DNA from: Escherichia phage BAU.Micro_ELP-22 | Reading direction: 5' to 3' (one strand) | Sequence record: OR699282.2 | Length of the DNA stretch: 64,000 nt | Part shown: positions 29,141 to 56,970 of the stretch, piece by piece | Position numbering within the stretch: position 1 is the first letter of the stretch | How the letters are laid out: every line of letters begins with the position of its first letter | Translations under genes and position numbers: made by a program | The notes under the pieces: generated by a model | Database searches by the model: none | What the model was told of the DNA's origin: nothing | What the model saw: the letters and a program-made list of their open reading frames with translations, nothing else

Positions 29141-29142
29141 TT

Positions 29143-33638: not shown

Positions 33639-34748
33639 TTATTTTGGTAAATCAATTTTAGTAAAGACTGCAACATCCTCGATTGCACCTGGAATGGCGT
33701 AATACGATCCAGTACTATACACATCTCCATTTTTGGTTAATATCGATGTCAAACCATCACTAAAAAGAACATCCCTAATCTCACTAACTTCAACGGGTAA
33801 TTGTAAATTGGTAGCACTATATATAGCACCAGTTTGAGAATTGTTTAATCCCAAACCACGGTTCGCCCCAACACCCTTCTGATATGTACTAGTAATTACC
33901 ATTTGTGTAGCAGTATTTAAGGCAGGTGAATTCGTCATAAACAATGGAGAACTATTAGGCAAAGTACTTACAGGAACTGCACGGAATGTAGTCGTACCTG
34001 AACTAAGAAAGTTTGGAGTTTGACCACATACGAAATATGATGTACCATTATAGTAATTTAATGCATTACCACCAATGGCTGCATCGATTACACCAGAACT
34101 ACGCAATCCCCAAGTGTTAATTTGTGTTTGGTTCCCCGTACCATGCTGCCCACTACTATTCCATCCAGAACTATATAGCTTATTATCTAATGTAAGATAC
34201 ATACTATCATTCGCATTGGTCATTACTTTACGAACGTTCGTAGCACATTGAGTTAATGTGTAAATTGATGAGGAACCAATACCCAAAGAACCACGATATC
34301 CATTATCTCCTGCACCATAGAGTACTGAATTAGTGCTAAGTACAAATATTAAACCATTTGTACATACAATATTAGCAATTTCACTTACTGGTATAGCATT
34401 GGTAAACCAATTAGTTCTTTCAACTAATACAGTACTGTAAGAAGTAGTTGTAGAAGATGAGAACCAGTACGTTTGACCTGATGTCCATATCGTATTATCA
34501 TTTTTAATAATAACAAGTGTACGATCACCCACGAAAAAATTAGAAACATCTGCACTTACTAATGTCCACGAAGACACCGTGTTGGTATTACCATTTCCAG
34601 ATTCACCACCTTGATTTCTACCTATGTAATATAAATCATGTGAATCAGTCAATAAGAATTGGCCTTGGGTAGAAGCACCAACTTTAATTATTTTTTTAGG
34701 ACCAGGGACAATATTTCCATACCTAATCATTCTTCCAAAAGGTAACAT
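33639..34748 (-). CDS. RCC1-like repeat protein, leader-peptide family
   Basis: Start at MLPFGRMIRYGNIVPGP; GWNSSGQHGTGN; SD overlaps the stop of the upstream gene. Confidence 0.75.
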   Translation of the reverse strand: MLPFGRMIRYGNIVPGPKKIIKVGASTQGQFLLTDSHDLYYIGRNQGGESGNGNTNTVSSWTLVSADVSNFFVGDRTLVIIKNDNTIWTSGQTYWFSSSTTTSYSTVLVERTNWFTNAIPVSEIANIVCTNGLIFVLSTNSVLYGAGDNGYRGSLGIGSSSIYTLTQCATNVRKVMTNANDSMYLTLDNKLYSSGWNSSGQHGTGNQTQINTWGLRSSGVIDAAIGGNALNYYNGTSYFVCGQTPNFLSSGTTTFRAVPVSTLPNSSPLFMTNSPALNTATQMVITSTYQKGVGANRGLGLNNSQTGAIYSATNLQLPVEVSEIRDVLFSDGLTSILTKNGDVYSTGSYYAIPGAIEDVAVFTKIDLPK

Positions 34749-34756
34749 ATTCCCTC

Positions 34757-35959
34757 CTATTGTTGCCATAACTGCGTTGGCATTAATGTTAGTGTAGTAG
34801 TACTATAAGTGCCATCTGGCAATCTACCACCATTTCCATTCCAGCCACCACATGCATATAATTTATAATCTTTAGTAATTATTATGGTTCTGCTCCAATC
34901 TTTAGATGCCATAAGAACATTGTCATAACCACCACTTATTGCACTAAGATTAAAAATATTCCAAGTTCTAACTAATGTATTAGTTCCATTACCTTCTTGA
35001 CCATATGAGTTAGCACCACTACTTCTAACATATGGTGCGTATTGTGCCATAGGTGCACCAATTGATGCATTTCCCATATTACTTGGACAAATAAAAGTAC
35101 TGTACTTACTTACATCAACCGTGACCGATGTGTTCCTAATTGGTGTTAGCTGATTTACCGATGTAGTCGTACCATTACCAGCTTGTCCAGAACTGTTAGC
35201 CCCGCTATAATATACAGACCCACCAGTAGTAAACCACCAAGTAACATCGTATGTAGTACTAATATGTTCTACATTACTAATCACGAATTTGTTCAAATAT
35301 ACAACAGAACTACCACCACATCCACTTTCACCAAAGTTATCCTTACCACAAAACCATGCATCTTTATTTGATTTGATATAGTGCGTTCCTTGTAATGAAC
35401 ATGCCATATGTGTAACTTCACCCATATTAGTCATAACTGTGAGTGTAGGGATGGAATTTTTATTCCCAGAGCCACATTCACCATTAGTATTTCTTCCACA
35501 CGCAATTACTCTACCATCGGTTAATAATATTCTAGTACTTTCACCTATATATACACTCTTGATCATATTAGCCATAACACCTATTTTATTAAATGCAACA
35601 GTAACATCAGTCCATGTTGTCAAATAACCATTAACAGGTGTTGCATCTCCATAATCAGAAAATGCACCCACAGACCCAGTGTAGTATATTTTATTATCCA
35701 AATCAATCATCAATGAACCTTGAACACCAAGCCAAAAGGCTGCACAGTTCCTTGCAAGTACTGTAAATGACGAAACTGCTGCTGAATTCCCAAGACCAAA
35801 TTGATAAAAGTTATTACTACCATAACCATATAAAGTATTAGTTGGGTTATGGAGATACATACAGTTTGTATAATGTTGTTGTAAAACATCTGAGAACTCT
35901 ACAGGTACTGGACCTGGTGCAATATTTGCGTACTTAACCATTCTTCCAAAAGGTAACAT
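34757..35959 (-). CDS. RCC1-like repeat protein, leader-peptide family
   Basis: 400 aa; MLPFGRMVKYANIAPGP; GANSSGQAGNG, GRNTNGECGSGN. Confidence 0.8.
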   Translation of the reverse strand: MLPFGRMVKYANIAPGPVPVEFSDVLQQHYTNCMYLHNPTNTLYGYGSNNFYQFGLGNSAAVSSFTVLARNCAAFWLGVQGSLMIDLDNKIYYTGSVGAFSDYGDATPVNGYLTTWTDVTVAFNKIGVMANMIKSVYIGESTRILLTDGRVIACGRNTNGECGSGNKNSIPTLTVMTNMGEVTHMACSLQGTHYIKSNKDAWFCGKDNFGESGCGGSSVVYLNKFVISNVEHISTTYDVTWWFTTGGSVYYSGANSSGQAGNGTTTSVNQLTPIRNTSVTVDVSKYSTFICPSNMGNASIGAPMAQYAPYVRSSGANSYGQEGNGTNTLVRTWNIFNLSAISGGYDNVLMASKDWSRTIIITKDYKLYACGGWNGNGGRLPDGTYSTTTLTLMPTQLWQQ

Positions 35960-36030
35960 ATTTCCCTCCTTTATTCATTATACTATATTTAATACAAAAA
36001 GAAATGCCAGTATCAAGTACTGGCATCGTA

Positions 36031-37140
36031 TTACTTGGGTAATGGAATTGTGGTCCATCTATTTGCGGCAACGTCACCTGGTACATATGTAGGACTACCA
36101 CTTACAGCAATAGTTTCATTACCATCATATACAACACTGAAGTTTGTGCACGTATACAACGCTGCGGCATCTGGATTGTAATTTTCAAGTGTTAGTGTAT
36201 TGGTGAACAAATTCAATGCAGTAGTTGAGCCGTTTTTACCATATGCACCTGTAGTATATATCTTTCCTTCTGTTGTTGAGTACATATTAACATATGACCC
36301 AGATGATGATTTAGCAATTTTATCTATCTTGCTATCTATTGTTTTAGAGTTAAATTGAAATGGATATACCTGTACGTTAGTATCTAAACCATTTCCCAGT
36401 TCCCCATTTAACTGCCACCCTGTGTGGTACATTCCCGCATTTGTATATGCAAGCGTACTATACGCATTACCACCCATTATTTTAGTGCCAGATAATTTTA
36501 AACCAAACGATGTCCACTTACCAGTTTCATTTCCTATGGAACCATAAGCACTTGTACCACACGCACGAAGCTCGCCATTTGACGTTAGAAGCACTGTATT
36601 ATTAACGTTACCAAATATATCAATAACCTGATTAGTGCCATTATTCAGTACTGAAGTAAAAGTACTCTGTGAGTAAGTACTACCTGAACCAACAGAACCA
36701 TTTGTGTTCATACCTCTTCCATATACAATTTTACCATCAGCACTAACATAGTGCATTGAATCAAAACCAATGGATATCATTTTAATATCAGATATATCTG
36801 GAAATGAAGAAGTTACATCTACTCCACCTAGTGGAATTGTATTATTTCCTAAACCTAATGAGACATTAGTTCCGTGCATTATAAATTTATCTTCTTTAAA
36901 ATATAAAATATTATATCCACCAGCCCATGCATTATTAACGCCATTTGTAATCAGTACCCATTTATTTTGTGTAGTAGTTCCAGTAATATTTAACTGTTGA
37001 TAGTTATTGATTCCACAACCATATAGCGATCCATCACCATATAGTACATATAAATTATCATATCCTGCAATAACTTTCTTTATTTTTTTGGGTACAGGTG
37101 CTACGTTCCCATAATTCATCATTCTTGCAAAAGGTAACAT
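36031..37140 (-). CDS. RCC1-like repeat protein, leader-peptide family
   Basis: 369 aa; MLPFARMMNYGNVAPVP; first gene of the array, divergent from the 37244 promoter. Confidence 0.8.
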   Translation of the reverse strand: MLPFARMMNYGNVAPVPKKIKKVIAGYDNLYVLYGDGSLYGCGINNYQQLNITGTTTQNKWVLITNGVNNAWAGGYNILYFKEDKFIMHGTNVSLGLGNNTIPLGGVDVTSSFPDISDIKMISIGFDSMHYVSADGKIVYGRGMNTNGSVGSGSTYSQSTFTSVLNNGTNQVIDIFGNVNNTVLLTSNGELRACGTSAYGSIGNETGKWTSFGLKLSGTKIMGGNAYSTLAYTNAGMYHTGWQLNGELGNGLDTNVQVYPFQFNSKTIDSKIDKIAKSSSGSYVNMYSTTEGKIYTTGAYGKNGSTTALNLFTNTLTLENYNPDAAALYTCTNFSVVYDGNETIAVSGSPTYVPGDVAANRWTTIPLPK

Positions 37141-43439: not shown

Positions 43440-43630
43440 GACGGATTTTGGGTGTAGTTACCCTGGATGGATTTTGGGCGTAGATATGTCTAGCCCTCCA
43501 GAAGTCTGGAAGTAAAGATGGCTATCCATCTAGACGGCTAAACGGCTAGATTTCTGGATGGCTGGATGGCTAGACGTTTGGACGGCTAAACGGCTAGATG
43601 GTTACACGTCTGGAAGTATAGACGGCTAAA
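43440..43630. repeat. iteron-like short direct repeats (GACGGCTAAACGGCTAGAT, CTGGATGG, GTCTGGAAGTA)
   Basis: Multiple 8-19 bp units repeated within ~190 bp. Confidence 0.55.
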
Positions 43631-45145: not shown

Positions 45146-45227
45146 TACTTGCAAACTAAGTTTAAAAGCGTATAATGTTTTACATCAGGTGGGGAATAGT
45201 TCCCCACTATATAAGAGGATTAAAAAA

Positions 45228-45467
45228 ATGGCAAAATCAAAAATGTTCTTAGGTCACAAAAACAAAACTCATTGGAATGTAAGCCTGTGGATTAATAACG
45301 ATGAGGGATTGTATCGGTTGGCCCTGGATTTTATTAACGACAACACTAATCGCAATGATGCGGCCCGTCATATGATGTTATTTTTAGAACAGACTGGACA
45401 AGATAAAACACCGGACGGATTCAAATATAGCACTACTGCGATCCGTGCGGCGATGGTTGGAATGTAA
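45228..45467 (+). CDS. hypothetical protein, paralog of 47341..47580
   Basis: 79 aa; shared GHKNKTHWNVSLWINN..TPDGFKYSTTAIRAAMVGM. Confidence 0.7.
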   Translation: MAKSKMFLGHKNKTHWNVSLWINNDEGLYRLALDFINDNTNRNDAARHMMLFLEQTGQDKTPDGFKYSTTAIRAAMVGM

Positions 45468-45486
45468 TAGAATAGAATTTATTTAA

Positions 45487-45520
45487 AGTACTATCGCAAA
45501 AAATGATAGTACTTTATAAT
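45487..45520 (+). promoter_or_regulatory. class B promoter flanked by inverted repeat AAGTACTAT..ATAGTACTT
   Basis: Palindromic arms upstream of TATAAT; same architecture at ~58664, ~51040, ~54225, ~54490, ~62010. Confidence 0.5.
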
Positions 45521-45557
45521 AGTGTTTTATTCATACACCAACGATAAGGGCAACAGC

Positions 45558-45824
45558 ATGAATATTAAGTATTTTGCGACGCGTGAACAAGCTCGGATCG
45601 CCGCACGCCAGGACGGGGCAACGTTTAAAGATATGGGCGTACAATCGGAACGTGGTAAACGTTGGGCCATTGTAAAGCGTAGTACCGCCAGATCATTACA
45701 GTACTGGTTAGCGGCCTTAAAAAGTCCCGATAGTGTATCGCGTCGAGTGGTAGAAATAAAGCTCGACCGAAAGGGCAACCGCGTGACCGTGTACCGTACT
45801 AAAAAGATTGCAGTACTTGAATAA
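45558..45824 (+). CDS. hypothetical protein, paralog of 58746..59141
   Basis: 88 aa; YFATREQARIAARQDG..KGNRVTVY shared. Confidence 0.65.
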   Translation: MNIKYFATREQARIAARQDGATFKDMGVQSERGKRWAIVKRSTARSLQYWLAALKSPDSVSRRVVEIKLDRKGNRVTVYRTKKIAVLE

Positions 45825-45911
45825 AAAGTACTTGCAAACTAAGTTTAAAAGCGTATAATGTTTTACATCGAGAGCGGGAACACTTCCCGCCTATAACCTG
45901 GAGTAATAAAA

Positions 45912-46142
45912 ATGACTAATATGTATATGACTGAAGTTAAAACCGTAAAAGATACTACCACAAATAAAGTTACTTACTTACAGCGGATCTGTGGTGTATG
46001 GCAACGTATCAGCAAATCAAAGTACTTTAAATTAACATCATATGCAAACCGTTCGGATTCATTCAGTACTGAAATAAAAGGTAATAAAGTACACCAATAT
46101 GGCACTTATTATTATTATAGCCTGGACGCGATTGCAGTATAA
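45912..46142 (+). CDS. hypothetical protein
   Basis: ORF 76 aa; promoter, hairpin, SD GGAG. Confidence 0.65.
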   Translation: MTNMYMTEVKTVKDTTTNKVTYLQRICGVWQRISKSKYFKLTSYANRSDSFSTEIKGNKVHQYGTYYYYSLDAIAV

Positions 46143-46424
46143 GCAGTTTACAAATCTTTACAATTGCCGGTATTGACTTATTTTGTCAGTACTGGCATAA
46201 TGTATTCATTGGCAGATAAGCCGTAGCCCATAGGGTGCGGGAGTGTATCTATAGAAAAATTAGTTTAGTATAGTTACAATTGTGCACCCGGTGGGTTAGC
46301 TGTTGTCATGTGGTATATTATGCCAGTACTTGATAATGCTGTCAATACTTTTTTTTACTATTCAGTACTGAAAACTATTTTTAAAAAGTACTTGCAAACT
46401 ATGTTTAAAGGCGTATAATGTTTT

Positions 46425-46505
46425 ACATCAGGACGGGGAACGAAATAAGTAACTTCCCGTTAAGTAGCCCAGGAGTAAGGCACACGAAAAACTCCCCTGA
46501 TAAAA
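46425..46505 (+). ncRNA. candidate structured leader / small RNA between tandem promoters
   Basis: CAGGACGGGGAACG..ACGAAAAACTCCCCTGA with paired ends; near-copy at 57554-57628. Confidence 0.3.
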
Positions 46506-46569
46506 TAGTTTGACAAATGTTTTTAAAAGCGTATAATACTTACATCAACTACTGAATGAGGGTTACAAA

Positions 46570-47258
46570 ATGAAAACTATCACTACTACTACTTTCGTTA
46601 TGGATTTTTCTGAATTGAACGCAGAACAAAAAACGTCAGCTATCGAACTGGTTCGGGAACGTGAAAAAAACTCAAACGACATTTTTCTGAATTGAACGCA
46701 GAACAAAAAACGTCAGCTATCGAACTGGTTCGGGAACGTGAAAAAAACTCAAACGACAATTATTTTTCTGAAAGTGAAATTGAATACTATAAAGAAACAG
46801 TACTACCGGAATATGGCATTAATGACGCTGAAATACAATTCAGTGGTTTTTGGTCCCAGGGTGACGGTGCATCAATCAGTACTGACCACGTTGACGCAGT
46901 GAAGTTTTTACGCAAGGTAAGAGCATTAACTAAGTATCGCTCAATCCGTCACTTGCTGAATGAAGATGATTTGGCGATGAGTGTAAAGCGTTCGCACTCC
47001 CACTACTCGCATGAGAATACTGTAAGCGGGTACATTGAATCGGCTTACACTGATTTAACCGCAAAACAAGAAACGTTAGTTAATGAGCTTGAGGAACTAC
47101 TCACTGAAACTATTCGTGAATTGTCCCGCAAGTTGTACCGTGATTTAGAGAATGCATATGAGGATCAATTCACTACTGAAAACATTACGGCACTGATTGA
47201 GGGTAACGAGTATCAATTCAATGTTATTGATGGCGTAGTGGAATCAATCGAATATTAA
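46570..47258 (+). pseudogene. gene disrupted by perfect 77-bp tandem duplication
   Basis: ATG 46570 frame stops at 46693-46695 inside copy 2; rest of ORF open in the frame restored by deleting one copy. Confidence 0.6.
46604..46757 (+). repeat. perfect 77-bp tandem duplication (2 copies)
   Basis: 46604-46680 identical to 46681-46757. Confidence 0.9.
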
Positions 47259-47340
47259 TTTAAAAAGTACTTGTTTAAAGGCGTATAATACTTTATATCG
47301 AGGCGGGGAGTGGTTCCCCGCTCAAACGAGGATTAAAAAA

Positions 47341-47580
47341 ATGGCTAGTACTAAAACTTACAACGGGCACAAAAACAAAACTCATTGGAATGTAAGCCTT
47401 TGGATTAATAACGGTGAGTCATTGTATCGGCTTGCTCAAAGTTGCATCGCACAAAGTAGAACTAAAGATATTGCAGCGGAATGTATGTACCGCAGATTAA
47501 AAGCCAACGGTACTACTACAACGCCGGACGGATTCAAATATAGCACTACTGCGATCCGTGCGGCGATGGTTGGAATGTAA
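47341..47580 (+). CDS. hypothetical protein, paralog of 45228..45467
   Basis: 79 aa; SD GAGGA. Confidence 0.7.
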   Translation: MASTKTYNGHKNKTHWNVSLWINNGESLYRLAQSCIAQSRTKDIAAECMYRRLKANGTTTTPDGFKYSTTAIRAAMVGM

Positions 47581-47637
47581 TATTCAGTACTGAGATAATG
47601 GCGGGTAATAGTTCCCGCCTTTACTGAGGGTTATCTA

Positions 47638-47925
47638 ATGAGTAAAGTAATAAAGTACAATGTGTTAAGCAAATCATTGTCTATCAGTGAATGCACCGAT
47701 GGTTTTTGGATGTACGATGAAACGCGTGGCATGAATTTAGCTATGCGTGCAAAAACTGCTGAGGCGGCGTATATTCAAGCACTGGAATACTACCAGGAAC
47801 GTTTAAAGGAAGTAGAAGAAGATTATAAAAGCCTCAAAGCGAAAGTAGATCATTTCGTCGGTCAATTCGTGGAAGACAACGACGAGGACGGGCACTACTG
47901 CGACCGTTGCGGATCTTACAGTTAA
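47638..47925 (+). CDS. hypothetical protein
   Basis: ORF 95 aa; C-terminal HYCDRCG. Confidence 0.6.
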   Translation: MSKVIKYNVLSKSLSISECTDGFWMYDETRGMNLAMRAKTAEAAYIQALEYYQERLKEVEEDYKSLKAKVDHFVGQFVEDNDEDGHYCDRCGSYS

Positions 47926-47942
47926 GTACTGAGGATTATCTA

Positions 47943-48146
47943 ATGAGTGATTTAATCGACCGCATCAAAGAGCTTGAAGAAAAAGAATTGCAGTTGATCG
48001 GGTTACGGAATAAAGTATTCCATGATTTAGGTGGCTTTATTAATGCCTGGGATAGTGGCGATCCTGATGCGTTACCTGCTAACCGCCAGGCGATGATCAA
48101 TGATGTGCGTGGTGTCTTTGAGTATGTTTTAAAGCAATTAAATTAA
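47943..48146 (+). CDS. hypothetical protein
   Basis: Internal ATG with SD GAGGA (67 aa). Confidence 0.55.
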   Translation: MSDLIDRIKELEEKELQLIGLRNKVFHDLGGFINAWDSGDPDALPANRQAMINDVRGVFEYVLKQLN

Positions 48147-48232
48147 AAAAGTACTTGCAATTAGTTTTCAGTACTGTATAATGGTTTACATCAAAGGGAG
48201 AAATGGTTCTCCCTGGTAATGAGGAAAATAAA

Positions 48233-48454
48233 ATGGCAAATATCACTACTCTTTCCCAACTGGAAGCACTGGTTAAATCTATGCGGGAACATGCCGACAA
48301 AATCGGCGTACAAGATCCAGCCGTTTGCTTCTGCGACGAATTGAATGATGATACCCTGGTAATAGCAGAAGTCCAGGACGTTTCTAACTATTCCTCGCGT
48401 TACACTGGCGGCGTAGCAAATAAAGGTGACTTCTGTTTATACCTTACAAAATAA
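48233..48454 (+). CDS. hypothetical protein
   Basis: Start after 5' hairpin and SD GAGGAAAA (73 aa); track start 48203 lies inside hairpin. Confidence 0.6.
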   Translation: MANITTLSQLEALVKSMREHADKIGVQDPAVCFCDELNDDTLVIAEVQDVSNYSSRYTGGVANKGDFCLYLTK

Positions 48455-48457
48455 CAA

Positions 48458-48492
48458 CGCGGGGAGATAATAACTCCCCGTTACTTTTTCAG
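48458..48492 (+). terminator. intrinsic terminator
   Basis: CGGGGAG-ATAATAA-CTCCCCG hairpin + TTACTTTTT. Confidence 0.55.
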
Positions 48493-48696
48493 TACTGAAT
48501 CATTTAATAGACGGATCTCGGCACCCGGTGGGTTAGTGACTGTTTCGTCTTGATGTAGTAATTATGCCAGTACTGGATGCACTTGTCAACAACTATTTTT
48601 CAAATACTTTTTATTAAAATACTTGCTAATAGTTTTTAAACGCGTATAATGTTTTGCATAGGGGAGCGGTTCCCCTGGTAACTAAGGAATAAGAAA

Positions 48697-48933
48697 ATGC
48701 TTGAACAAATCAAATCAACGTCTGCTAATGTAACGGGAACGGTATCACACTTTATTGGTGATGAATCGCGGGGCGTTCCCTATTGTGCTGTACATGTAAA
48801 CACTGAGGGTAACTACTGGTTTACGGTTTACGGATCATATTCATTTGGACGGCCAGGGCATCAAAAAATTCTGGATAAAGTACAGCCAACGGGTAAAAAT
48901 ATCACGGCTGAAATGTTTTATAAAAAATCATAA
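48697..48933 (+). CDS. hypothetical protein
   Basis: ORF 78 aa; SD AAGGAA. Confidence 0.65.
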   Translation: MLEQIKSTSANVTGTVSHFIGDESRGVPYCAVHVNTEGNYWFTVYGSYSFGRPGHQKILDKVQPTGKNITAEMFYKKS

Positions 48934-49017
48934 AGTACTTGATAATAGTTTTTAGTACTGTATAATATTTTACATAGCACGGGGGAGCGGTTCCCCCTGG
49001 TAACTAAGGATAATCAA

Positions 49018-49317
49018 ATGAAAATTGCAATCATCGCCCTGGCTTTATCTGTTTCCTCTTTCGCTGTTAATGCGTCGTTAGATGTGAGTAGTGAAAAATT
49101 CATTCAGTGCACTGTTGCGATGACCAATGAAAGTACGGGCGAGATTGTTTTAAAGGATTTAGAGATCCAGCCACAAGCATTTAAAAACGGGCCGTTCCAT
49201 GAAGAAGACGAAAACGGTAGCACAACCATTTACTATGATGCCAGTACTAAACGCGGTTCGGTCACGGTTATGGATACTGAGAAAGTAACTCATACAGGCG
49301 TTATTAATTGCCGTTGA
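49018..49317 (+). CDS. secreted protein (signal peptide)
   Basis: ORF 99 aa; SD AAGGA. Confidence 0.65.
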   Translation: MKIAIIALALSVSSFAVNASLDVSSEKFIQCTVAMTNESTGEIVLKDLEIQPQAFKNGPFHEEDENGSTTIYYDASTKRGSVTVMDTEKVTHTGVINCR

Positions 49318-49338
49318 TTGATACTACGGGGTAACATC

Positions 49339-49569
49339 ATGACAGCACGAATAGTTTTACTTAACGAAAGCAGTACTACACAACTACTTAACGCCGTGCA
49401 TTATGATATTGAAACGAGCGTTAATCTTATCAGTACTGTCGTACTGTTGGACACTGGAAAGGTCGCCAATGATAAAGCGATTGCAGGTATACTAACGGAT
49501 CTTGAGCCTGGTAGCAGTGCACCAATAACGTTAAATGGTAAAGTGTTTAACATTTTACTTACTGATTAA
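49339..49569 (+). CDS. hypothetical protein
   Basis: Internal ATG (76 aa). Confidence 0.5.
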   Translation: MTARIVLLNESSTTQLLNAVHYDIETSVNLISTVVLLDTGKVANDKAIAGILTDLEPGSSAPITLNGKVFNILLTD

Positions 49570-49575
49570 GTACAT

Positions 49576-49598
49576 AGCCCACCTGGTGGGCTTTTTTG
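49576..49598 (+). terminator. intrinsic terminator
   Basis: AGCCCACC-TGGTGGGCT hairpin + T6. Confidence 0.7.
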
Positions 49599-49802
49599 TT
49601 TTTGTAGTATCGTAGTACTGAGATACTTTGAAAATAGTTTTAAAAAAGTAGTTGACATTACCGCAGAAAAGCGTAGAATGTATTACATCAAGACGGGGAG
49701 CACTAAGTAGACCGCCAGTAAGTCGAACGAAAAACTGGACACGTCGAGAAAACTTTGATACACTAATAAACGTAAACTAAACTTTAATTGAGGATTTATA
49801 AA

Positions 49803-50285
49803 ATGGCTAATGTAAAATCATTCATCAAAGCACTGGTAGCAAATGAAACTAACGTCGCGGCTGAGATCCTGGCTGAACTGGATAACGATACCATGAAAGC
49901 GGTACGCAATAATTTTAACATCGCGTACAGTACTGCGAAAGAACTACAAGCAAATAAAGCGGCAGAAATTGAAGCGGCAAAGGCGGCCCGTGAAGCAGAA
50001 CTACAAGCAACAATCGAAAGTATTCAGGCGGCAGTAGTTGGATTGGATCTGGAAGTAGTTACAGAGATGGCACAAAAAGCCCTGGCGGTTAAGTATGGGG
50101 AAGACAAGCCAGAAGTAAAAGCCAAAAAATGGATTCAGGAACGCGTAGCGGTAGTACTGGACAACGGGGAAGAATATCTGATTCCGGTGCGTGGTAACTG
50201 TATTGCGGTAGTACTGGACGCGATTAACTCCAGTGGTATGACTCGCGAGGAATGGATCGAAGCTCATCGCAAAGTTGAAGCATAA
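49803..50285 (+). CDS. Ala-rich putative coiled-coil protein
   Basis: Start at ATG with SD GAGGA (160 aa); long structured leader upstream. Confidence 0.65.
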   Translation: MANVKSFIKALVANETNVAAEILAELDNDTMKAVRNNFNIAYSTAKELQANKAAEIEAAKAAREAELQATIESIQAAVVGLDLEVVTEMAQKALAVKYGEDKPEVKAKKWIQERVAVVLDNGEEYLIPVRGNCIAVVLDAINSSGMTREEWIEAHRKVEA

Positions 50286-50306
50286 CAATTAAAGTACTGA
50301 ATCACT

Positions 50307-50334
50307 AGCCCACCTTAAACGGTGGGCTTTTTTG
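50307..50334 (+). terminator. intrinsic terminator
   Basis: AGCCCACC-TTAAAC-GGTGGGCT + T6. Confidence 0.7.
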
Positions 50335-50570
50335 TGTTTATCGTTTACCAGGCCACCAGCACCGCCTAGAAACGATTCTAACGCATTAAACTGATTATCT
50401 GATGCATTGCCCTAGCTGGTGGCGTTAAGGTCGTTGTAATGCGATTGAGAGCGTTTAAAGTATTTTGCAAAAAGTAATAAAAAGTACTTGCACGATTAAG
50501 AGATTAGCGTATAATGTTTTACATCGAGAGGGGGAAACGGTTCTCCTTCCAAATCAAAGGAATCAAAACA

Positions 50571-50798
50571 ATGGCTATTATCATTACTCGCGTATCTGGT
50601 ACTACTGGCAACGAACAAGTAGTTGCAGTCATTACCAACAAGGAAGGTGCGGAATTGCAAAATGCAATGAATACCTGGGCCGTTAATGAGTTCGGTCAGT
50701 GGGCAAGTGTAGCATACATTGAAACCTATCAAGTGCCGTCGATTAGTTTAACTGATTTGGGCGTTGAGCGTATCCTTTGCCTGGATGAATTAAATTAA
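50571..50798 (+). CDS. hypothetical protein
   Basis: Start after 5' hairpin, SD AAAGGAA (75 aa). Confidence 0.6.
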   Translation: MAIIITRVSGTTGNEQVVAVITNKEGAELQNAMNTWAVNEFGQWASVAYIETYQVPSISLTDLGVERILCLDELN

Positions 50799-50883
50799 AA
50801 AAGTACTTGCAAAGTAAATCGAATAAAGTATAATACATTACATCAAGGGGAGAAATGATTCTCCCCACTACAAGGAAACTAAT

Positions 50884-51027
50884 ATGAAAACTTGTCAATG
50901 TGGTCAGAAATCTATTACTGGTTTAAAGCGGGGCGTTGCTCTTTGCCAGTACCATTATAATTTACAAGTATGGGGTAAAGAATGGGCCGACCAGGTGGAA
51001 GCAGCAAAGAAAGCAAAAAGTAAGTAA
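50884..51027 (+). CDS. small Cys-rich protein (47 aa)
   Basis: Promoter + hairpin + SD AAGGAAA; CQCG..CQYH; below track cutoff. Confidence 0.5.
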   Translation: MKTCQCGQKSITGLKRGVALCQYHYNLQVWGKEWADQVEAAKKAKSK

Positions 51028-51118
51028 AAATATTATCACAGTACTATTGACATAGTTTGATAGTACTGGCATAATAGATTTTATCAAAACGACACATATT
51101 AATTTAAGGAATACCAAA

Positions 51119-51442
51119 ATGGCTAAAACTATCATCAACACCGTTTCCCTGGCTGCAATCCGTGCAATCAATGTTGACGGTAAACGTTGGACTGATTCAT
51201 ATGGCAATACTTATCATTCTTGTCATGTAAGCGTTGAACTGGATAACGGTTTGAATGATCTGGCGGTTGAATCATTTACTTATGGCTATGAAGATGCATA
51301 TCAACAAACGGCGTTTGATCTCTTAAAGGAATCAGTAGACGGGCTTGATACTGTTGAAACCTCCCTTACTCGTTTATGTAATGATTTGTCTATCCCGTTG
51401 CATTGTACTGTACAGAATGTTAAACGTAAAAAAGATCTTTAA
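51119..51442 (+). CDS. hypothetical protein, paralog of 58327..58650
   Basis: 107 aa; shared RWTDSxGNTYHSC..FTYGY..VKRKKD. Confidence 0.7.
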   Translation: MAKTIINTVSLAAIRAINVDGKRWTDSYGNTYHSCHVSVELDNGLNDLAVESFTYGYEDAYQQTAFDLLKESVDGLDTVETSLTRLCNDLSIPLHCTVQNVKRKKDL

Positions 51443-51522
51443 TTAGCTTTACTTTATGCAGATACTTTGATATAGTGTCTGCATAGGGGAAAGAAATTAA
51501 ATTAACTTAAGAGGATAGTATA

Positions 51523-51792
51523 ATGAAAAATATCAGTACTTTAATCGATGCAGGTACACATGTTCGTCGGTCTATGGTTACAACCAGTACTACAAAACAA
51601 GTAGCAAGCGGTTATCTTGTATTTGTGCACGATGGAAAACTCCTGGAACGTTCAATCAATTTTGATGTTAAAAACAATTGCCGTTTTATTATCTTTAAGC
51701 GTGAACAATATAAAATCGATTTACCAGCGAAGCCCATAAGCGGGGCGTACAACGTGCAATCATTGTTTGAGCGTCAACCATACACCTATTAA
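51523..51792 (+). CDS. hypothetical protein
   Basis: ORF 89 aa; SD AGAGGA. Confidence 0.6.
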   Translation: MKNISTLIDAGTHVRRSMVTTSTTKQVASGYLVFVHDGKLLERSINFDVKNNCRFIIFKREQYKIDLPAKPISGAYNVQSLFERQPYTY

Positions 51793-51843
51793 TCAAAACA
51801 TCGTTAGCGGTCGATTCAGGCCGCTTATATTGGGGATTATACC

Positions 51844-52116
51844 ATGAACGTTAATCAAGTACTGAATGAGATCGAAAGCATCATTAAACCGATGAAGCGT
51901 ACTGATGCTATGTTAACACCGGAAGAATGCCGCCTTTATGAGCGTTACAGCGTCGAACAAGTCCAGGCAATGGCTATGGCTACCCCAGCCGTTAAACCGC
52001 CTGAGAATGCGTTACAGGACGTTACAGGGGATTATATCATTAATCCAGTACTAGGGAAGATGGCTGCAATCACCGAAGATCAACAAGACTACTTAAGCCA
52101 GTACTTAAAAGGTTAA
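51844..52116 (+). CDS. hypothetical protein
   Basis: ORF 90 aa. Confidence 0.6.
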   Translation: MNVNQVLNEIESIIKPMKRTDAMLTPEECRLYERYSVEQVQAMAMATPAVKPPENALQDVTGDYIINPVLGKMAAITEDQQDYLSQYLKG

Positions 52117-52121
52117 TTAAT

Positions 52122-52331
52122 ATGCTTACTGTACAGGATAAGATCGACATCTTAAAGGTTAATATGTATGTGATTGATGCAGTACCTGGTAAAGTATTTG
52201 CATACGATGACACTACTGTAAGCAATTTCTACTATAGCCAGGACGTGGGGGATCTTTCTGTACAGTCGGTTATTGAAAACGTAGTTAATGCAGCGTATGA
52301 GCATTTACTTTCAAATAGTACTTGCAATTAG
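52122..52331 (+). CDS. hypothetical protein
   Basis: ORF 69 aa. Confidence 0.55.
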   Translation: MLTVQDKIDILKVNMYVIDAVPGKVFAYDDTTVSNFYYSQDVGDLSVQSVIENVVNAAYEHLLSNSTCN

Positions 52332-52400
52332 TTTTTAAACGCGTATAATGTTTTACATGAAGGGGAGAAATGATTCTCCCCACTAATTAAGGAATATGAA

Positions 52401-52547
52401 ATGAAAGCATCAAAAAAGAGTAATACTAAGAAAGCACGTTCAACCTTAGATGGGGTATTCCCTTTACGTTTCGTTGATGAAGTAGTTTCCTACCCGCCGG
52501 GCCTTACTCCTGAGATGGTAGAAAGTTTGCGTAAATCTAAAAAATAG
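52401..52547 (+). CDS. small basic protein (48 aa)
   Basis: Promoter + hairpin + SD AAGGAA; below track cutoff. Confidence 0.5.
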   Translation: MKASKKSNTKKARSTLDGVFPLRFVDEVVSYPPGLTPEMVESLRKSKK

Positions 52548-52629
52548 TACTTGCAATTAGTTTTTAGTACTGTATAATAGTTTACATGAAGGGGAAAACG
52601 TTCCCCTTACACCTAACGAGGAAAGTATA

Positions 52630-52881
52630 ATGGAAACAATTTTAATCAAAGACACTGCTACTACTGTAACTTATGATAATGATTGCATTATCCCAGGGAC
52701 TGAGTACGGCGAACGTGTACCCGTTCAAGTAGAGATTGATACCACATACATCGACAAGGCTGACCAGTGTATCACTATTGTAATTGGTGAATATCGTTTT
52801 CTACCAGAAGAGATCCAAAAATGGCAGAATATGATTGACCGTGCGAAATTAGTCGCACAAAGTTTAAAATACAAAGTTTAA
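52630..52881 (+). CDS. hypothetical protein
   Basis: ORF 83 aa; SD GAGGAAA. Confidence 0.65.
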   Translation: METILIKDTATTVTYDNDCIIPGTEYGERVPVQVEIDTTYIDKADQCITIVIGEYRFLPEEIQKWQNMIDRAKLVAQSLKYKV

Positions 52882-52967
52882 AATAATACTTGCAATTAGT
52901 TTTTAGTACTGTATAATGTTTTACATGAAGGGGAGAAATGATTCTCCCCAATAACAGGAGAAACAAA

Positions 52968-53120
52968 ATGAAACAATACAACGCTCGGTTTGATGTTACT
53001 ATCGGTAACGGCAAAGGTCAATTCTCTTTCAGTACTCGCCGCAGTTATACAGAAAACTTCCTGCGTAATTGTGCACTGACCGCCGCTCAAATTAAACATT
53101 ATTTTCAGGCTAAAAAATGA
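52968..53120 (+). CDS. small basic protein (50 aa)
   Basis: Start after hairpin with SD AGGAGAA. Confidence 0.5.
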   Translation: MKQYNARFDVTIGNGKGQFSFSTRRSYTENFLRNCALTAAQIKHYFQAKK

Positions 53121-53206
53121 GATCATTAGCTTATTACAGTTCGGCCCTGGTCGGTGCATTGATCGCGGCGTTGTTAGTAACCTATCTATTCTTTATGGTG
53201 ATTTAA
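53117..53206 (+). CDS. small membrane peptide (29 aa)
   Basis: ATGA overlap with upstream stop; hydrophobic; uncertain. Confidence 0.3.
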   Translation: MRSLAYYSSALVGALIAALLVTYLFFMVI

Positions 53207-53350
53207 ATGAATCCAACAGGTTTAAACTATAAAAGTTGTTCGGCATTTACGAAAGCAAATAAAGCGAATGCACGTAAAGCGAAAGTACAGGAATACATCA
53301 AGCAAGGCATGACGCGAAAGGCGGCGATTCTAAAAGCTAAAAATAAATGA
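53207..53350 (+). CDS. small basic protein (47 aa)
   Basis: Abuts previous stop (TAAATG); Lys/Ala-rich. Confidence 0.4.
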   Translation: MNPTGLNYKSCSAFTKANKANARKAKVQEYIKQGMTRKAAILKAKNK

Positions 53351-53356
53351 AAAAAG

Positions 53357-53388
53357 TGGTTGACTCCGGTCAGCCATTTTGCTATTAT
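53357..53388 (+). terminator. terminator with embedded promoter (GGTTGACTCCGGTCAGCC variant)
   Basis: Hairpin + TTTTGC + TATTAT; same cassette near 57394, 60385, 62648. Confidence 0.5.
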
Positions 53389-53571
53389 ATATTCATTGAG
53401 AGATAGCTCACTAGCCCACAGGGTGCAGGAGTGTATCTATTGTATAATGTTTGAGTACTGAAAACTATTTTAAAGTATTTGATAAAAAGTACTTGCAAAC
53501 TATCTCAATAAGCGTATAATGTTTTACATCGCAAGGGGAAACGGTTTCCCCTAGTAATAAGGAAACGAATC

Positions 53572-53913
53572 ATGACTATCTCAATTGCTCAATCTAACTT
53601 TGAAAATGAAATCATCGCCCAGGCACTGCGTTTAAATGATGGTCGGGCCGAAATCAATTACGGTTTCAATTCAGGCGGTTGTGAAAAATATCAGTACTTT
53701 GTAACGGCTGATGGCGGTGTCCTGGGTATCAATACAGTTATTGTAAACATCCAAAAAATTAATTTCAATGATCCAGACGATAGCCAGTTTTACATCACTG
53801 GCGTAGACGTGAACTATGAGGATGACTCACTAACTGATGATCACACTGGTGAGCGGTTAGAAAGTGCATACGGTGAAGATGATTATCAGTCCGGTCCAGA
53901 AGATTTCGAATAA
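53572..53913 (+). CDS. hypothetical acidic protein
   Basis: ORF 113 aa; SD AAGGAAA. Confidence 0.65.
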   Translation: MTISIAQSNFENEIIAQALRLNDGRAEINYGFNSGGCEKYQYFVTADGGVLGINTVIVNIQKINFNDPDDSQFYITGVDVNYEDDSLTDDHTGERLESAYGEDDYQSGPEDFE

Positions 53914-54008
53914 TATAAAAAAATAGTTTGACAATAGATTATAGTACTGTATAATAGTTTACATCAAGGGGAGAATAGTTCTCCCCACTAACAGAGAGAG
54001 AAAACAAA

Positions 54009-54221
54009 ATGGCTAATATCCGGTCGAAATTAAAAAATGCAAAACAAGTTTTATTTTCAGATCATGAATACTTTAATAAAGATATTACAGGAGTTACAAG
54101 TATCAAGGAAGTAAAAGAAAAAACCGGCGTTTTGTGTGATGTGCGATTAGTTGGAACATTTGGGAATAACGTGCTATATCGCTGCGGTGATTACAATTTT
54201 ACACTGACTATCATTAACTAA
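54009..54221 (+). CDS. hypothetical protein
   Basis: ORF 70 aa. Confidence 0.6.
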   Translation: MANIRSKLKNAKQVLFSDHEYFNKDITGVTSIKEVKEKTGVLCDVRLVGTFGNNVLYRCGDYNFTLTIIN

Positions 54222-54303
54222 AAATATTATCACAGTACTATTGACATAGTTTGATAGTACTGACATAATAACTTTTATCAACTACACTACTAAGGAATTA
54301 AAA

Positions 54304-54483
54304 ATGGCTATCATCGCAAAAACTGAAATCATCGGCCTGGATTCTATCATCATGACGTTTGAAGATCAAAAAGGTATGTATGTGGTTTCCTATGGTGATT
54401 ATGTTCGGGAGTATGAAACGGTAGACGAAGCCTTTGAAAGTTACATTCGCCAGGTGAATAAAGCATACGACGACTACCGCTAA
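54304..54483 (+). CDS. hypothetical small protein (59 aa)
   Basis: Class B promoter upstream; SD AAGGAA; below track cutoff. Confidence 0.5.
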   Translation: MAIIAKTEIIGLDSIIMTFEDQKGMYVVSYGDYVREYETVDEAFESYIRQVNKAYDDYR

Positions 54484-54582
54484 AATATATTACCAGTACT
54501 ATTAAATCTATTGACAATGTTTGATAGTACTGTATAATAAGTTTTATCAACAGTAGTTAACTTAACCTAAGAGAGAAACAAA

Positions 54583-54726
54583 ATGATCGCACTGGATTCA
54601 TTCATCGACGCAGTACTGGCAAAAACTGGCGAGGATCTGACCGCAGAACAATACGCAATGATCGAGCAATGCCAGCAAGACGGTAAATCGGTGAAAGATA
54701 CTGTTAAGATTATCCGCAAGATGTAA
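54583..54726 (+). CDS. hypothetical small protein (47 aa)
   Basis: SD AGAGAGAAA; terminator hairpin follows at 54733-54759. Confidence 0.45.
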   Translation: MIALDSFIDAVLAKTGEDLTAEQYAMIEQCQQDGKSVKDTVKIIRKM

Positions 54727-54831
54727 GATTATAGCCCACTGGTTAACGCTGGTGGGCTTTAATTCATTACCCTATACAATGCCAGTACTAAACCGTTTAT
54801 CTCGTTAGAATGCGTTACAGGACGTTTAACA

Positions 54832-55029
54832 ATGATTAGCATGAAATCAGTACAAAAACAAATAGAAACATTATCAAAAATTAAACGTAAACAGTACTCC
54901 TTAGAATATACAATCAATGGTAACTATCATCTAATGAAAGAAAATAATTTTATAGTCATTGATGAATCATTGCAAATCATTAGTATAGTACTGAAAGCAT
55001 TAATCAATGACAGAAAAAAATTAAAATAA
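54832..55029 (+). CDS. hypothetical protein, AT-rich
   Basis: ORF 65 aa; weak SD. Confidence 0.4.
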   Translation: MISMKSVQKQIETLSKIKRKQYSLEYTINGNYHLMKENNFIVIDESLQIISIVLKALINDRKKLK

Positions 55030-55360
55030 ACTATTGACAATATCATCCAGTACTGGCATAATACTTACATCAAGACGAGAACGTCACTAACCCATAGGGT
55101 GCACAAATGTAACTGTATAATATTGATCAAAAAATGATCTGATCAATACTTGATCAATTTGCGTAAAGTAGTATAATTCTATGCAGTTGGTTAGACGAAA
55201 GGTTATGATTAGTAGTGCAAGTGTATAAAAATTTTCATGGTGTATCGTTCCGCACATATGGGGATGAATATGTGGTATCATGTGGATTGGAAAAAGTAAG
55301 AACAAGTAATATTATTGTCGCATTACAGTACTATAGTATTTTTATAATGAGGTTAAAATA

Positions 55361-55618
55361 ATGGCTGTAGGATTCGCGAAAGATGGGGCCGAACAAGACG
55401 AGATTAACGCAGTGATTCAGGCTGCCGTTAACCACGCTAGAAAGCAAATTAACGCACAAATAGAATCACTGATACATTGCCTCGACTGCGGCGATATAAT
55501 CCCTGAGAAACGACGCCAGGCCGTTAAGGGATGTAAGTACTGCATAACTTGCCAGGAGGATCATGATAGTACTTTTAAACGTCCCCCGCGTAATTGTTGG
55601 CATAGATCTATGAGATAA
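55361..55618 (+). CDS. TraR/DksA-family C4 zinc-finger protein
   Basis: CLDCGDIIPEKRRQAVKGCKYCITCQE matches the CxxC-N17-CxxC TraR/DksA finger as recalled. Confidence 0.8.
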   Translation: MAVGFAKDGAEQDEINAVIQAAVNHARKQINAQIESLIHCLDCGDIIPEKRRQAVKGCKYCITCQEDHDSTFKRPPRNCWHRSMR

Positions 55619-55682
55619 AAAGTAATTGACAGTACTGAAAGATAGTGTATAATGTTTTATATCTTAACTGAGGATAGTAATC

Positions 55683-56039
55683 ATGGGAATACAACATATC
55701 ACGCGTACTACTGACAATGGCGAGATCACTGGCTATCAAGTACAGGGCAAAGTAGCACAATTGCAGTACTGGTTTGTTAAACGTGGAATCATTGCACCGG
55801 ATCTTGATTATGACCGTGTAGCGTTTATTGATTCTCTTTATGTTGATCCTGATAGTCGGGGCAATGGTGAAGGTAACGAATTAATGAATGCCTTTATCGA
55901 TGCCGCCGATGATTCAGATTGTATCATCTTAGAATGCGATACGGGAGAAGATAACGCCTTTAATCTTAAAGAATGGTACGAAGGTTTCGGATTCGAGGTA
56001 TTGATAGATAGTGAATATCCTATCATGATTTTATCATAG
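55683..56039 (+). CDS. putative GNAT-family acetyltransferase
   Basis: 118 aa; RGNGEGNELMNAF resembles GNAT motif A; tentative. Confidence 0.45.
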   Translation: MGIQHITRTTDNGEITGYQVQGKVAQLQYWFVKRGIIAPDLDYDRVAFIDSLYVDPDSRGNGEGNELMNAFIDAADDSDCIILECDTGEDNAFNLKEWYEGFGFEVLIDSEYPIMILS

Positions 56040-56117
56040 TACTTGCATTTAGTTTTCAGTACTGTTATAGTACTTGCATCAAGGGGAAACATCTTCCCCT
56101 ACTAAGAGGAAATAAAA

Positions 56118-56306
56118 ATGGAAAACTTATCAAGTATTTTAGTACAAGATGATTTCGGTAATCCTGGAAGTGCTATCATTGTTCGGGGTAATAAAGCAAC
56201 ATTTGTTATTGCTGGTGGACCTGTACAGCGTAGCATTAAAAACAATGCCGTTACTATTAATAATGTACGCTATCGCTTAGATAAAGAATTGATTCATAAA
56301 CTGTAA
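56118..56306 (+). CDS. hypothetical protein
   Basis: ORF 62 aa; promoter + hairpin + SD. Confidence 0.6.
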   Translation: MENLSSILVQDDFGNPGSAIIVRGNKATFVIAGGPVQRSIKNNAVTINNVRYRLDKELIHKL

Positions 56307-56333
56307 TATTAATTTAATAGAGGATAACAATAA

Positions 56334-56657
56334 ATGTACATTCATACTACTATCACAAAGGAAGTCCGTTGCCAGTTCGAAAGTATTCCGGGCGTATGTT
56401 TCATCACTGGTACGTTTTCCCCTGGTGATCGTGATAATCCAGTACTGTTACAATTACGCCATCCATCATGGGATAAAGCATTTGATCTACCGTTGAATGA
56501 ATTCGCAACTACTGCTGAAAAGTACATTAAAAATATTCGCGAGAATGATCGACTATTCATTAATGCTTTTAGTGATTCCGCGTTAAGCGAGATCCACGGC
56601 GTATTGGTTGCAATCATGGAATCAATGCAGAAAACTAAATTCAAACAAGGTGAATAA
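56334..56657 (+). CDS. hypothetical protein
   Basis: ORF 107 aa; SD GAGGA. Confidence 0.65.
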   Translation: MYIHTTITKEVRCQFESIPGVCFITGTFSPGDRDNPVLLQLRHPSWDKAFDLPLNEFATTAEKYIKNIRENDRLFINAFSDSALSEIHGVLVAIMESMQKTKFKQGE

Positions 56658-56740
56658 AAACTATTGACAATGCAATCCAGTACTGTATAATAAGTTACAT
56701 GAAGGGGAGAAATGATTCTCCCCACTGAGAGGAAAGAAAA

Positions 56741-56953
56741 ATGCAAGGTCAACTAATCGTTCGTAAATGGTCTGATACTAACGAAAAACCGTGGGATGTA
56801 CAATACATCGGACCGGATGGGGTATCACGTTATCAGCCTGGCGTAACGCATAGTACTGAGCAATATGCCGCCGCTCACCGCGAACGCCTGTTAGAATCCA
56901 TGAAACAGGGATACGGTGAAAAATTCATTCAAGATCATTGGCTGAAAGATTAA
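56741..56953 (+). CDS. hypothetical protein
   Basis: ORF 70 aa; SD GAGAGGAAA. Confidence 0.65.
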   Translation: MQGQLIVRKWSDTNEKPWDVQYIGPDGVSRYQPGVTHSTEQYAAAHRERLLESMKQGYGEKFIQDHWLKD

Positions 56954-56970
56954 TAGAAGGAGTACAGCTT

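Follow-up and report, generated by a model that had tools for sequence, protein, structure and literature searches.

In this work, we examined six promoters in a 64,000-nucleotide stretch of the genome of Escherichia phage BAU.Micro_ELP-22 (sequence record OR699282.2; hereafter the window), each of which carries two inverted arms built around the palindrome AGTACT. A first-pass annotation of the same DNA had interpreted the arms as the operator of a dimeric repressor or activator. By sequence comparison, the six sites, here called class C promoters, are a genuine and distinct promoter class conserved across genera. The comparisons described below show that selection keeps the base pairing of the arms and not a particular arm sequence, and the inverted repeat (dyad) looks like a stem-loop rather than a repressor site.

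An exact search returned six AGTACTAT-N(11-21)-ATAGTACT pairs in the window and no more, starting at positions 45487, 51040, 54234, 54495, 58665 and 62018. A covariance model derived from related promoters recovered exactly these six, with the next match at 22.7 bits, and the 352-kb genome of Escherichia phage ECO103 4-12-1, the best megablast match of the window (96% identity), contains the same six dyads and no others. The six inverted-repeat promoters of the first-pass annotation are therefore real; three of its coordinates (54225, 54490 and 62010) were displaced by 5-9 nt.

The arms are perfect 9-mers of the form (C/A)AGTACTAT, with CAGTACTAT in four of the six dyads and AAGTACTAT in two. 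In five dyads the last T of the left arm is either the first T of the -35 hexamer TTGACA or lies 1-9 nt ahead of that hexamer, so that the arms do flank the -35 and the spacer, as had been proposed, except in the first dyad, which has no good -35. The right arm stops 1-2 nt ahead of a TATAAT, CATAAT or TGTAAT hexamer in all six. Where the gap is 2 nt, the final T of the arm and the next G create a TGn extended -10 beside a weaker hexamer; this TG, at -15/-14, is present in the promoters at 51040, 54234 and 62018 and absent from the three with a 1-nt gap. The -35/-10 spacing of the dyad promoters is that of sigma70-type promoters (16-18 bp), and four of them (-35 at 51047, 54241, 54511 and 58673) match 11-12 of the 12 sigma70 consensus positions. 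The sixth reads TTGACA-17-TGTAAT and the first has TATAAT only. The class C consensus can be written aaAATAATTAtcaC-AGTACT-A-TTGACA-N5-TG-AT-AGTACT-Gg-yATAAT.

The class C module was also found in ~145-kb phages of the Vequintavirinae and Stephanstirmvirinae (rV5/phAPEC8-like), which are unrelated to the jumbo phages, namely A5-4, UPEC06, alia, phiWec186, phiWec190, Nernie, WPEC1 and KKP_3264. These carriers have no AGTACT enrichment and a normal GCGC content. They keep the -35, the -10, the 12-nt separation of the arms and the initial transcribed sequence, and their arms differ, yet are always complementary: CAGCACTAT/ATAGTGCTG in UPEC06, TAGCGCTAT/ATAGTGCTG in A5-4 (at 9730), TTGTACTAT/ATAGTACAA in Nernie, TTGTGCTAT/ATAGTACAA in alia, phiWec190, C3 and KKP_3264, and TTATACTAT/ATAGTATAA in phiWec186 and WPEC1. 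Two different arm variants coexist within the genome of A5-4, and three occur among near-identical Stephanstirmvirinae promoters.

Our alignment comprised 24 distinct promoters, taken from RaK2-like phages and from members of the Vequintavirinae and Stephanstirmvirinae. Over an 11-bp stem, 99.6% of the cells are paired, with not one unpaired cell among the 216 of the core. Both-sided, compensatory change is seen in four of the 11 stem pairs and one-sided change (to G.U or G-C) in two, with CG/UA/UG, AU/UA, GC/AU and UA/CG as the pair types across lineages, plus G.U intermediates. The covariation score is 0.207, against 0.115 for shuffled alignments (0.207 was reached in none of 500) and at most 0.06 when the partners are slid, and RNAalifold independently yields the same stem.

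These results bear directly on the proposed operator. The class C dyads resemble the operators of dimeric repressors, such as lambda OR/OL, the LexA boxes and those of Arc/Mnt, in that an inverted repeat lies over core elements of a strong promoter, with arms flanking the -35 and ending just before the -10. They differ from them in several respects. Half-site spacing is not fixed, since loops of 9, 11, 12, 13, 14 or 21 nt occur between intact arms when orthologs and paralogs are compared, and in one lineage (fEgEco12) a loop is inverted; the half-sites covary, four pairs having changed on both sides; two variants may be found in one genome; and no cognate DNA-binding protein was found, as helix-turn-helix (HTH), ribbon-helix-helix (RHH) and AbrB domains are absent from the Pfam matches of the 148 open reading frames (ORFs) of the window. 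The six downstream genes themselves have no HTH or RHH domain in Pfam, and match only families of unknown function in PHROGs. Compensatory changes between two half-sites are not what a protein with a fixed specificity would select, whereas base pairing would select them, and for this reason we favour a stem-loop over an operator for a dimer.

The symmetry could also have come from the abundance of AGTACT in this DNA, which is the explanation that the first-pass annotation had offered against its own proposal. When the AGTACT positions were held fixed and the flanks shuffled among the sites, 0.41 AT/AT pairs were expected against the six observed, with a maximum of 4 in 20,000 permutations. The flank permutation, the conservation in RaK2 and the covariance-model search together rule out a chance product of AGTACT enrichment, and enrichment alone is insufficient for the symmetry. 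The six dyads are not statistically independent, however, as they fall into two paralogous promoter families. This would suit a reading in which the dyad itself is functionless: a promoter leaves room for AGTACT solely ahead of the -35 and within the spacer, two copies happened to land there, and the six sites are duplicates of one or two ancestral promoters. A spacer AGTACT at the same register is indeed common without a left arm (18 of 38 candidate promoters), and its TG doubles as an extended -10. Nevertheless, besides the permutation result, RaK2 independently combines AT inner flanks with a left arm, the module is kept across genera although five loop nucleotides vary, and arm complementarity is maintained by compensatory changes in phages without AGTACT. 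We regard an absence of function as highly improbable and largely refuted.

The class is widespread. Class C promoters are present in 121Q and fEgEco12 and in RaK2-like contigs from metagenomes, and the phage records that contain them number 53 in all, with jumbo phages of Klebsiella, Salmonella and Erwinia among them. In RaK2 they precede genes without evident similarity to the class C genes of the window. They sit inside the terminal repeat wherever the records annotate termini. A broad scan of viral contigs for AGTACTAT-N(5-25)-ATAGTACT gave mostly chance single matches, and the marine N6 matches of the metagenome scan were set aside as unrelated coding sequence.

The window belongs with the ~350-kb jumbo coliphages of the Asteriusvirus group (PBECO4, 121Q and phAPEC6; megablast). 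Positions 1-20864 of fEgEco12 align to 42722-64000 of the window, and the direct terminal repeat (DTR) of that phage was determined as 20,993 bp by PhageTerm and restriction mapping (PMC13070987). Based on this alignment, all six dyads lie inside the DTR, which together with the early region occupies 42722-64000 (+ strand) of the window. It holds ~56 small genes co-oriented on the + strand, most of them with a predicted sigma70-type promoter of their own and with few terminators between them. Mosaic exchange of cassettes, as read from the sequences, links the DTR of the jumbo phages with the ~145-kb Vequintavirinae and Stephanstirmvirinae phages. Early gene/promoter cassettes in A5-4 (8100-10800) and in the window (45200-58000) share 68-89% nucleotide identity.

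Three types of early promoter can be told apart in the DTR. Type I promoters have AGTAC|TTGCAA and/or TTGACA-N9-AGTACT-g-TATAAT, followed by a GC-rich hairpin in the 5' untranslated region (5'-UTR), GGGGAGAA..TTCTCCCC; terminator-embedded promoters have the form AAAGGGATTGACTCCGGTCAGTCCCTTT-GC-TATTAT; and class C comprises the dyads. The 5'-UTR hairpin is found in none of the six class C promoters, versus nine of 14 other promoters with a spacer AGTACT.

With regard to function, we tentatively propose, while holding it to be somewhat short of an even chance, that each site is a copy of a conserved cassette in which a stem-loop surrounds the -35 and acts in read-through RNA. The 5' arm, from about -43 to -33, has the TTG of TTGACA at its end; ACA and ~5 free nucleotides form the loop; and the 3' arm, from about -24 to -14, leaves a gap of 1-2 nt to the -10 hexamer. 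Upstream, the preceding gene has its stop codon 11-19 nt ahead of the stem. Because the genes are co-oriented and have few terminators between them, the sense strand is transcribed through the stem, and pairing would most likely occur in the sense-strand RNA of read-through from the upstream gene. Our best guess is that the stem serves there as a 3' stabiliser or as a leaky terminator that insulates the next promoter. It would then correspond, in A/U-rich form, to the GC-rich terminator-embedded promoters (AAAGGGATTGACTCCGGTCAGTCCCTTT-GC-TATTAT), which share its region and geometry.

The predicted stems are 12-17 bp long, with dG values from -12.6 to -15.7 kcal/mol, and every one-sided change in the stem gives G.U on the sense strand. 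The class C register is also that of the terminator-embedded promoters at 53353, 57391, 60382 and 62645, with the -35 in the 5' arm and a stem ending 2 nt before the -10. Enclosing the -35 in a hairpin thus appears to be a design used repeatedly in this region.

Several observations weigh against this proposal. The arms are invariant within RaK2-like phages, where a protein that reads AGTACT could be acting on them. The G.U evidence comes down to two events that are independent of each other and two pairs that may be under constraint from TTGACA itself. As intrinsic terminators the class C stems fall short, having only 2-3 G-C pairs and no adjacent U-tract, and none was called in our terminator scan; the tail that follows the stem is the A/U-rich -10 region. 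Folds of the plus and minus strands of the wider region are similarly stable, with the plus strand better in 19 of 32. Finally, the register of the stem relative to the -35 and -10 is rigid in three phage groups, which hints at a coupling to promoter function that a mere 3' hairpin would leave unexplained; the DNA form may matter. Pairing as a hairpin at the DNA level is a possible alternative.

Two further lines were abandoned. Strand asymmetry of folding cannot serve as proof of an RNA structure, as no consistent bias was seen. An extended outer palindrome, joining the UP-like region with the -10 and initial transcribed region, was also dropped: the 75-nt folds look strong, but the flanks by themselves show only weak complementarity, with a mean z of -1.1 relative to shuffles, 79% of the lower-stem cells paired and 13 of the 24 sequences unpaired at one position.

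Intercistronic stem-loops are familiar from the early mRNAs of T7 and T4, in the form of RNase III sites and 3'-stabiliser hairpins. Like these and like overlapping terminator-promoter units, the class C stem-loop separates two early cistrons of the same orientation, follows the stop codon of the first within a few nucleotides and is compacted with the promoter of the second, and bona fide GC-rich versions of identical geometry exist in the same window. Unlike terminator-promoter units, it is A/U-rich, with few G-C pairs and without a canonical U-tract, and in every case the -35 hexamer is shared between its 5' arm and its loop. With 11-14 bp, the stem is also too short for a classical RNase III site. 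The hairpin promoters of the N4 virion RNA polymerase have 5-7-bp stems and 3-nt loops near the start site and require that polymerase. They likewise make a DNA inverted repeat an integral part of an early phage promoter; class C differs in its canonical sigma70 -35 and -10 and in its 11-bp stem with a loop of at least 8 nt centred near -28. In the literature searched we did not find a promoter cassette with its -35 in a covarying stem-loop that has been exchanged between jumbo phages and 145-kb phages unrelated to them. Taken singly, promoters and intercistronic hairpins are ordinary; the cassette that combines them offers a clean handle on transcript insulation or stabilisation in densely packed early regions.

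The individual dyads, all on the + strand, are as follows. The first, AAGTACTAT-N11-ATAGTACTT, has its arms at 45487-45513 (feature 45486-45514; 35.9 bits with the covariance model); it has no good -35 hexamer, its -10 TATAAT is at 45515-45520, and it precedes a gene at 45558-45824 (+) for 88 aa, assigned to phrog_8127. Its loop has 9 nt in ECO103 and 12 nt, inverted, in fEgEco12, which suggests, from sequence, an origin of the inversion in recombination or template switching between the arms. The loop reads cgcaaaaaatg at 45495-45505 of the window and, inverted, catttttttgcg at 2464-2475 of fEgEco12; the 9-nt loop of ECO103 differs from both.

The second dyad is canonical, CAGTACTAT-N12-ATAGTACTG, with arms at 51040-51067 (feature 51039-51068; 88.8 bits), a -35 TTGACA at 51047-51052, an extended -10 TG at 51067-51068 and a -10 CATAAT at 51070-51075; the gene is at 51119-51442 (+; 107 aa). 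The third, also canonical, has arms at 54234-54261 (N12; feature 54233-54262; 83.5 bits), a -35 at 54241-54246 and a -10 CATAAT at 54264-54269, and precedes a gene at 54304-54483 (+; 59 aa). In the fourth, CAGTACTAT-N21-ATAGTACTG at 54495-54531 (feature 54494-54532; 51 bits), the left arm is set apart from the -35 at 54511-54516 by 9 inserted nt; the -10 TATAAT is at 54533-54538 and the gene at 54583-54726 (+; 47 aa). Its ortholog in fEgEco12 has the canonical N12 form.

The fifth dyad, AAGTACTAT-N14-ATAGTACTT at 58665-58694 (feature 58664-58695; 28.8 bits), has a -35 at 58673-58678 and a -10 TATAAT at 58696-58701. Its gene, at 58746-59141 (+), encodes 131 aa; the product is a paralog of that of the gene at 45558 (35% identity, E = 2e-19, both phrog_8127), as the first-pass annotation had recognised. 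The sixth, canonical, has arms at 62018-62045 (N12; feature 62017-62046; 77.7 bits), a -35 at 62025-62030, a TG at 62045-62046 and a -10 TGTAAT at 62048-62053, followed by a gene at 62082-62339 (+; 85 aa).

The AGTACT contained in the arms is the more surprising part of the picture, with one palindrome multiplied ~8-fold in a virulent clade that purges palindromes, and its function is the most interesting question raised by these promoters. The window has 295 AGTACT sites against 22 expected (13-fold), and the 352-kb ECO103 genome 919 against 121 (7.6-fold), with one-mismatch variants at background level (58 at most). AGTACT is the sole strongly over-represented 6-bp palindrome of the ECO103 genome, from which AGCGCT, AGGCCT, CCATGG, CTCGAG, CTGCAG, GAGCTC, GCATGC, CGTACG and GCGC are absent. 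There is no GCGC in the 64-kb window, nor in the 352 kb of ECO103, where ~297 were expected; none occurs in the samples of RaK2, GAP32 and fHe-Yen9-04, and PA5oct has a normal number. A 50-kb sample of E. coli K-12 contained three AGTACT and 342 GCGC (~0.06 and ~7 per kb). The preferred form is yC-AGTACT-Gr, with C at -1 and G at +1 in ~45% of the sites, and CAGTACTG accounts for 204 of the 919, against ~3.5 that we estimate from base composition. The motif is enriched in RaK2, GAP32 and the Yersinia phage fHe-Yen9-04, and not in the distant relative PA5oct or in rV5/phAPEC8-like phages (A5-4, alia).

Coding copies occupy all three reading frames (84, 43 and 66), and ~85% of all sites are coding and not beside promoter elements. 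Coding AGTACT sites as internal promoters were discarded, as a -10-like hexamer is adjacent to 5.2% of them versus 4.1% of random positions. Between the window and ECO103, 2.0% of the third codon positions differ inside AGTACT and 8.0% outside (p = 4e-6), and the corresponding values for non-coding positions are 1.1% and 5.3%. Judged by this comparison, AGTACT is under purifying selection at the DNA level, even at synonymous sites. Its density is 5-8 per kb in the DTR and ~2.2 per kb elsewhere, being highest in 36000-64000 of the window, and fEgEco12 has AGTACT-free islands of several kb just outside the DTR (22.5-25 kb and 30-37.5 kb). The 1.4-kb gene of an HNH homing endonuclease (474 aa; 18504-19928 of the window), 100% identical to the copy in phage SHEFM2K, has one AGTACT inside, compared with ~3 per kb around it.

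In the early promoters of Asteriusvirus and RaK2, AGTACT occupies fixed registers, 9 nt past the -35 or overlapping either of its ends, and the distances between AGTACT sites peak at 20-22 bp. In the homologous promoters of A5-4 it is replaced by AGTAGT, AGCGCT or AGTGCT, while the -35, the -10 and the pairing of the arms are kept; RNA polymerase therefore does not need AGTACT, and its upkeep is, on the phages compared, dependent on something specific to the RaK2-like clade. Two copies are found in inverted arms because a palindrome in one arm of a stem necessarily recurs in the other. An ancestral-type stem TTGTACTAT/ATAGTACAA (phAPEC8-like) may thus have become CAGTACTAT/ATAGTACTG under the selection for (C)AGTACT(G) in this clade, whose reader could be a binding, modifying or nicking protein.

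One form of such a reader, which brings the proposal of the first-pass annotation up to date, is a clade-specific dimeric protein that binds AGTACT, for which the class C pair, 22 bp or two helical turns apart, would bracket the -35. A dimer bound there would occlude sigma regions 4 and 3 and so shut off or otherwise regulate the early promoters. AGTACT is palindromic with a symmetric flank preference, and a dimer would also agree with its purifying selection, the 20-22 bp peak, the concentration in the early region and DTR and, in two genera, its placement at set registers (TTGACA-N9-AGTACT, AGTAC|TTGCAA and TTGAC|AGTACT) in the majority of early promoters. Promoters moved to a non-enriched phage lose AGTACT and keep their -35 and -10, as expected if the reader is clade-specific and is not RNA polymerase. 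Most sites, however, lie away from promoter elements, the dyad is kept without AGTACT in other phage groups, with compensatory changes in its arms, the arm spacing ranges from 9 to 21 nt, and the 148 window ORFs yielded no HTH or RHH protein and no candidate reader. We therefore consider the dimer rather unlikely, if possible.

It is improbable, in our opinion, that AGTACT is the target of a phage methyltransferase, its methylation state before and after replication switching the early promoters in the manner of GATC clusters read by SeqA and of Dam-sensitive promoters. The phage does encode methyltransferases of the Dam family (PF05869) and of the 5-methylcytosine (m5C) type (PF00145), and short palindromes paired about two helical turns apart are clustered in one region. 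The clustering of GATC at oriC and at Dam-regulated promoters resembles that of the AGTACT pairs. However, GATC and GGCC are not avoided, which suggests them as the targets of the two enzymes, and a motif search for an AGTACT-specific methyltransferase gave only these Dam-family and m5C enzymes. Nor would methylation account for the compensatory changes in the arms of phages lacking AGTACT. Moreover, ten restriction enzymes were tried on fEgEco12 DNA, among them several that do not normally cut sites carrying adenine methylation, and all ten gave the cuts predicted in silico (PMC13070987).

As the clade purges most 6-bp palindromes and all GCGC, yet multiplies and selects AGTACT, its retention implies a sequence-reading function conserved across at least four genera. 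We suggest, as a doubtful possibility, that RaK2-like jumbo phages use (C)AGTACT(G) throughout their genomes as a "self" mark, the reader being a phage protein that binds, modifies or nicks it. If so, AGTACT (2.6-7 per kb) and the purge of GCGC would separate own from host DNA or globally control the early region, and the paired AGTACT of class C and the fixed-register sites would be where this system touches transcription.

A highly iterated palindrome, HIP1 (GCGATCGC), is known from cyanobacteria. Like HIP1, AGTACT is a short palindrome many-fold over-represented genome-wide, including coding sequence in all frames. Unlike HIP1, (C)AGTACT(G) is a 6-8-mer of a virulent phage clade that otherwise purges palindromes, has fixed registers in early promoters and reaches its highest density in the terminal repeat. 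AGTACT is also the central hexamer of the SlmA-binding site of E. coli, GTGAGTACTCAC. The flank that SlmA needs (G before and C after) is the one least used in the phage, and titration of SlmA was discarded on account of these wrong flanks (GAGTACTC at four of the 919 sites, compared with 204 for CAGTACTG). Literature searches returned nothing on AGTACT or CAGTACTG in phages, and neither the motif nor the dyad was found in promoter and transcriptome studies of the RaK2, CBB, PA5oct and Asteriusvirus groups; as an iterated palindrome AGTACT is apparently undescribed.

Some additional features of the window deserve mention. Most Type I promoters have a conserved 8-bp GC-rich hairpin, GGGGAGAA-N4-TTCTCCCC or variants of it, ~10-35 nt past the -10 (for example at 53956-53990, 56692-56725 and 60847-60880), with a different stem sequence in RaK2; this 5'-UTR hairpin may be an mRNA stabiliser, a protein-binding element or a nut-like element. 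Terminator-embedded promoters are located at 53353-53388, 57391-57426, 60382-60417 and 62645-62680, with variants near 46173 and 55034. Downstream of each lie ~60 nt of conserved non-coding sequence (..CATTGAGAGATAACTCACTAGCCCACAGGGTGCAGGAGTGTATCTAT..), after which comes a Type I promoter. This stretch may represent a small-RNA family; it has no Rfam match, and neither Rfam-type RNA families nor tRNAs were detected in the window. Between 6500 and 20000, GGGTTGACTTCGGTCAGCCC-TTTTTGC-TATAAT units are repeated, for example upstream of 6566, 10011, 11336, 12420, 16994, 18274 and 19997, each unit being a terminator hairpin that holds a -35, with its T-run as the spacer to a -10.

The DTR also contains a perfect tandem duplication of 77 bp (two copies, 100% identical; 46604-46758) and, ~800-900 nt inside its left end, imperfect repeats of 16, 24 and 48 bp (43529-43628). 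It encodes a GNAT acetyltransferase and a zinc-finger protein of the DksA/TraR type (55361-55618 and neighbours), which could be a modulator of host RNA polymerase. Pfam matches among the window ORFs include a ParE-like toxin domain and a pyrimidine-dimer glycosylase of the DenV type. Nine paralogous genes for RCC1-like beta-propellers lie on the minus strand at 24300-37140. The six of them with long intergenic leaders are each preceded by a nearly identical leader of late type, tattaaatatagtataatgaataaaggaggg, and five of these six genes also by a hairpin formed by gCCAGTAC..GTACTGGc.

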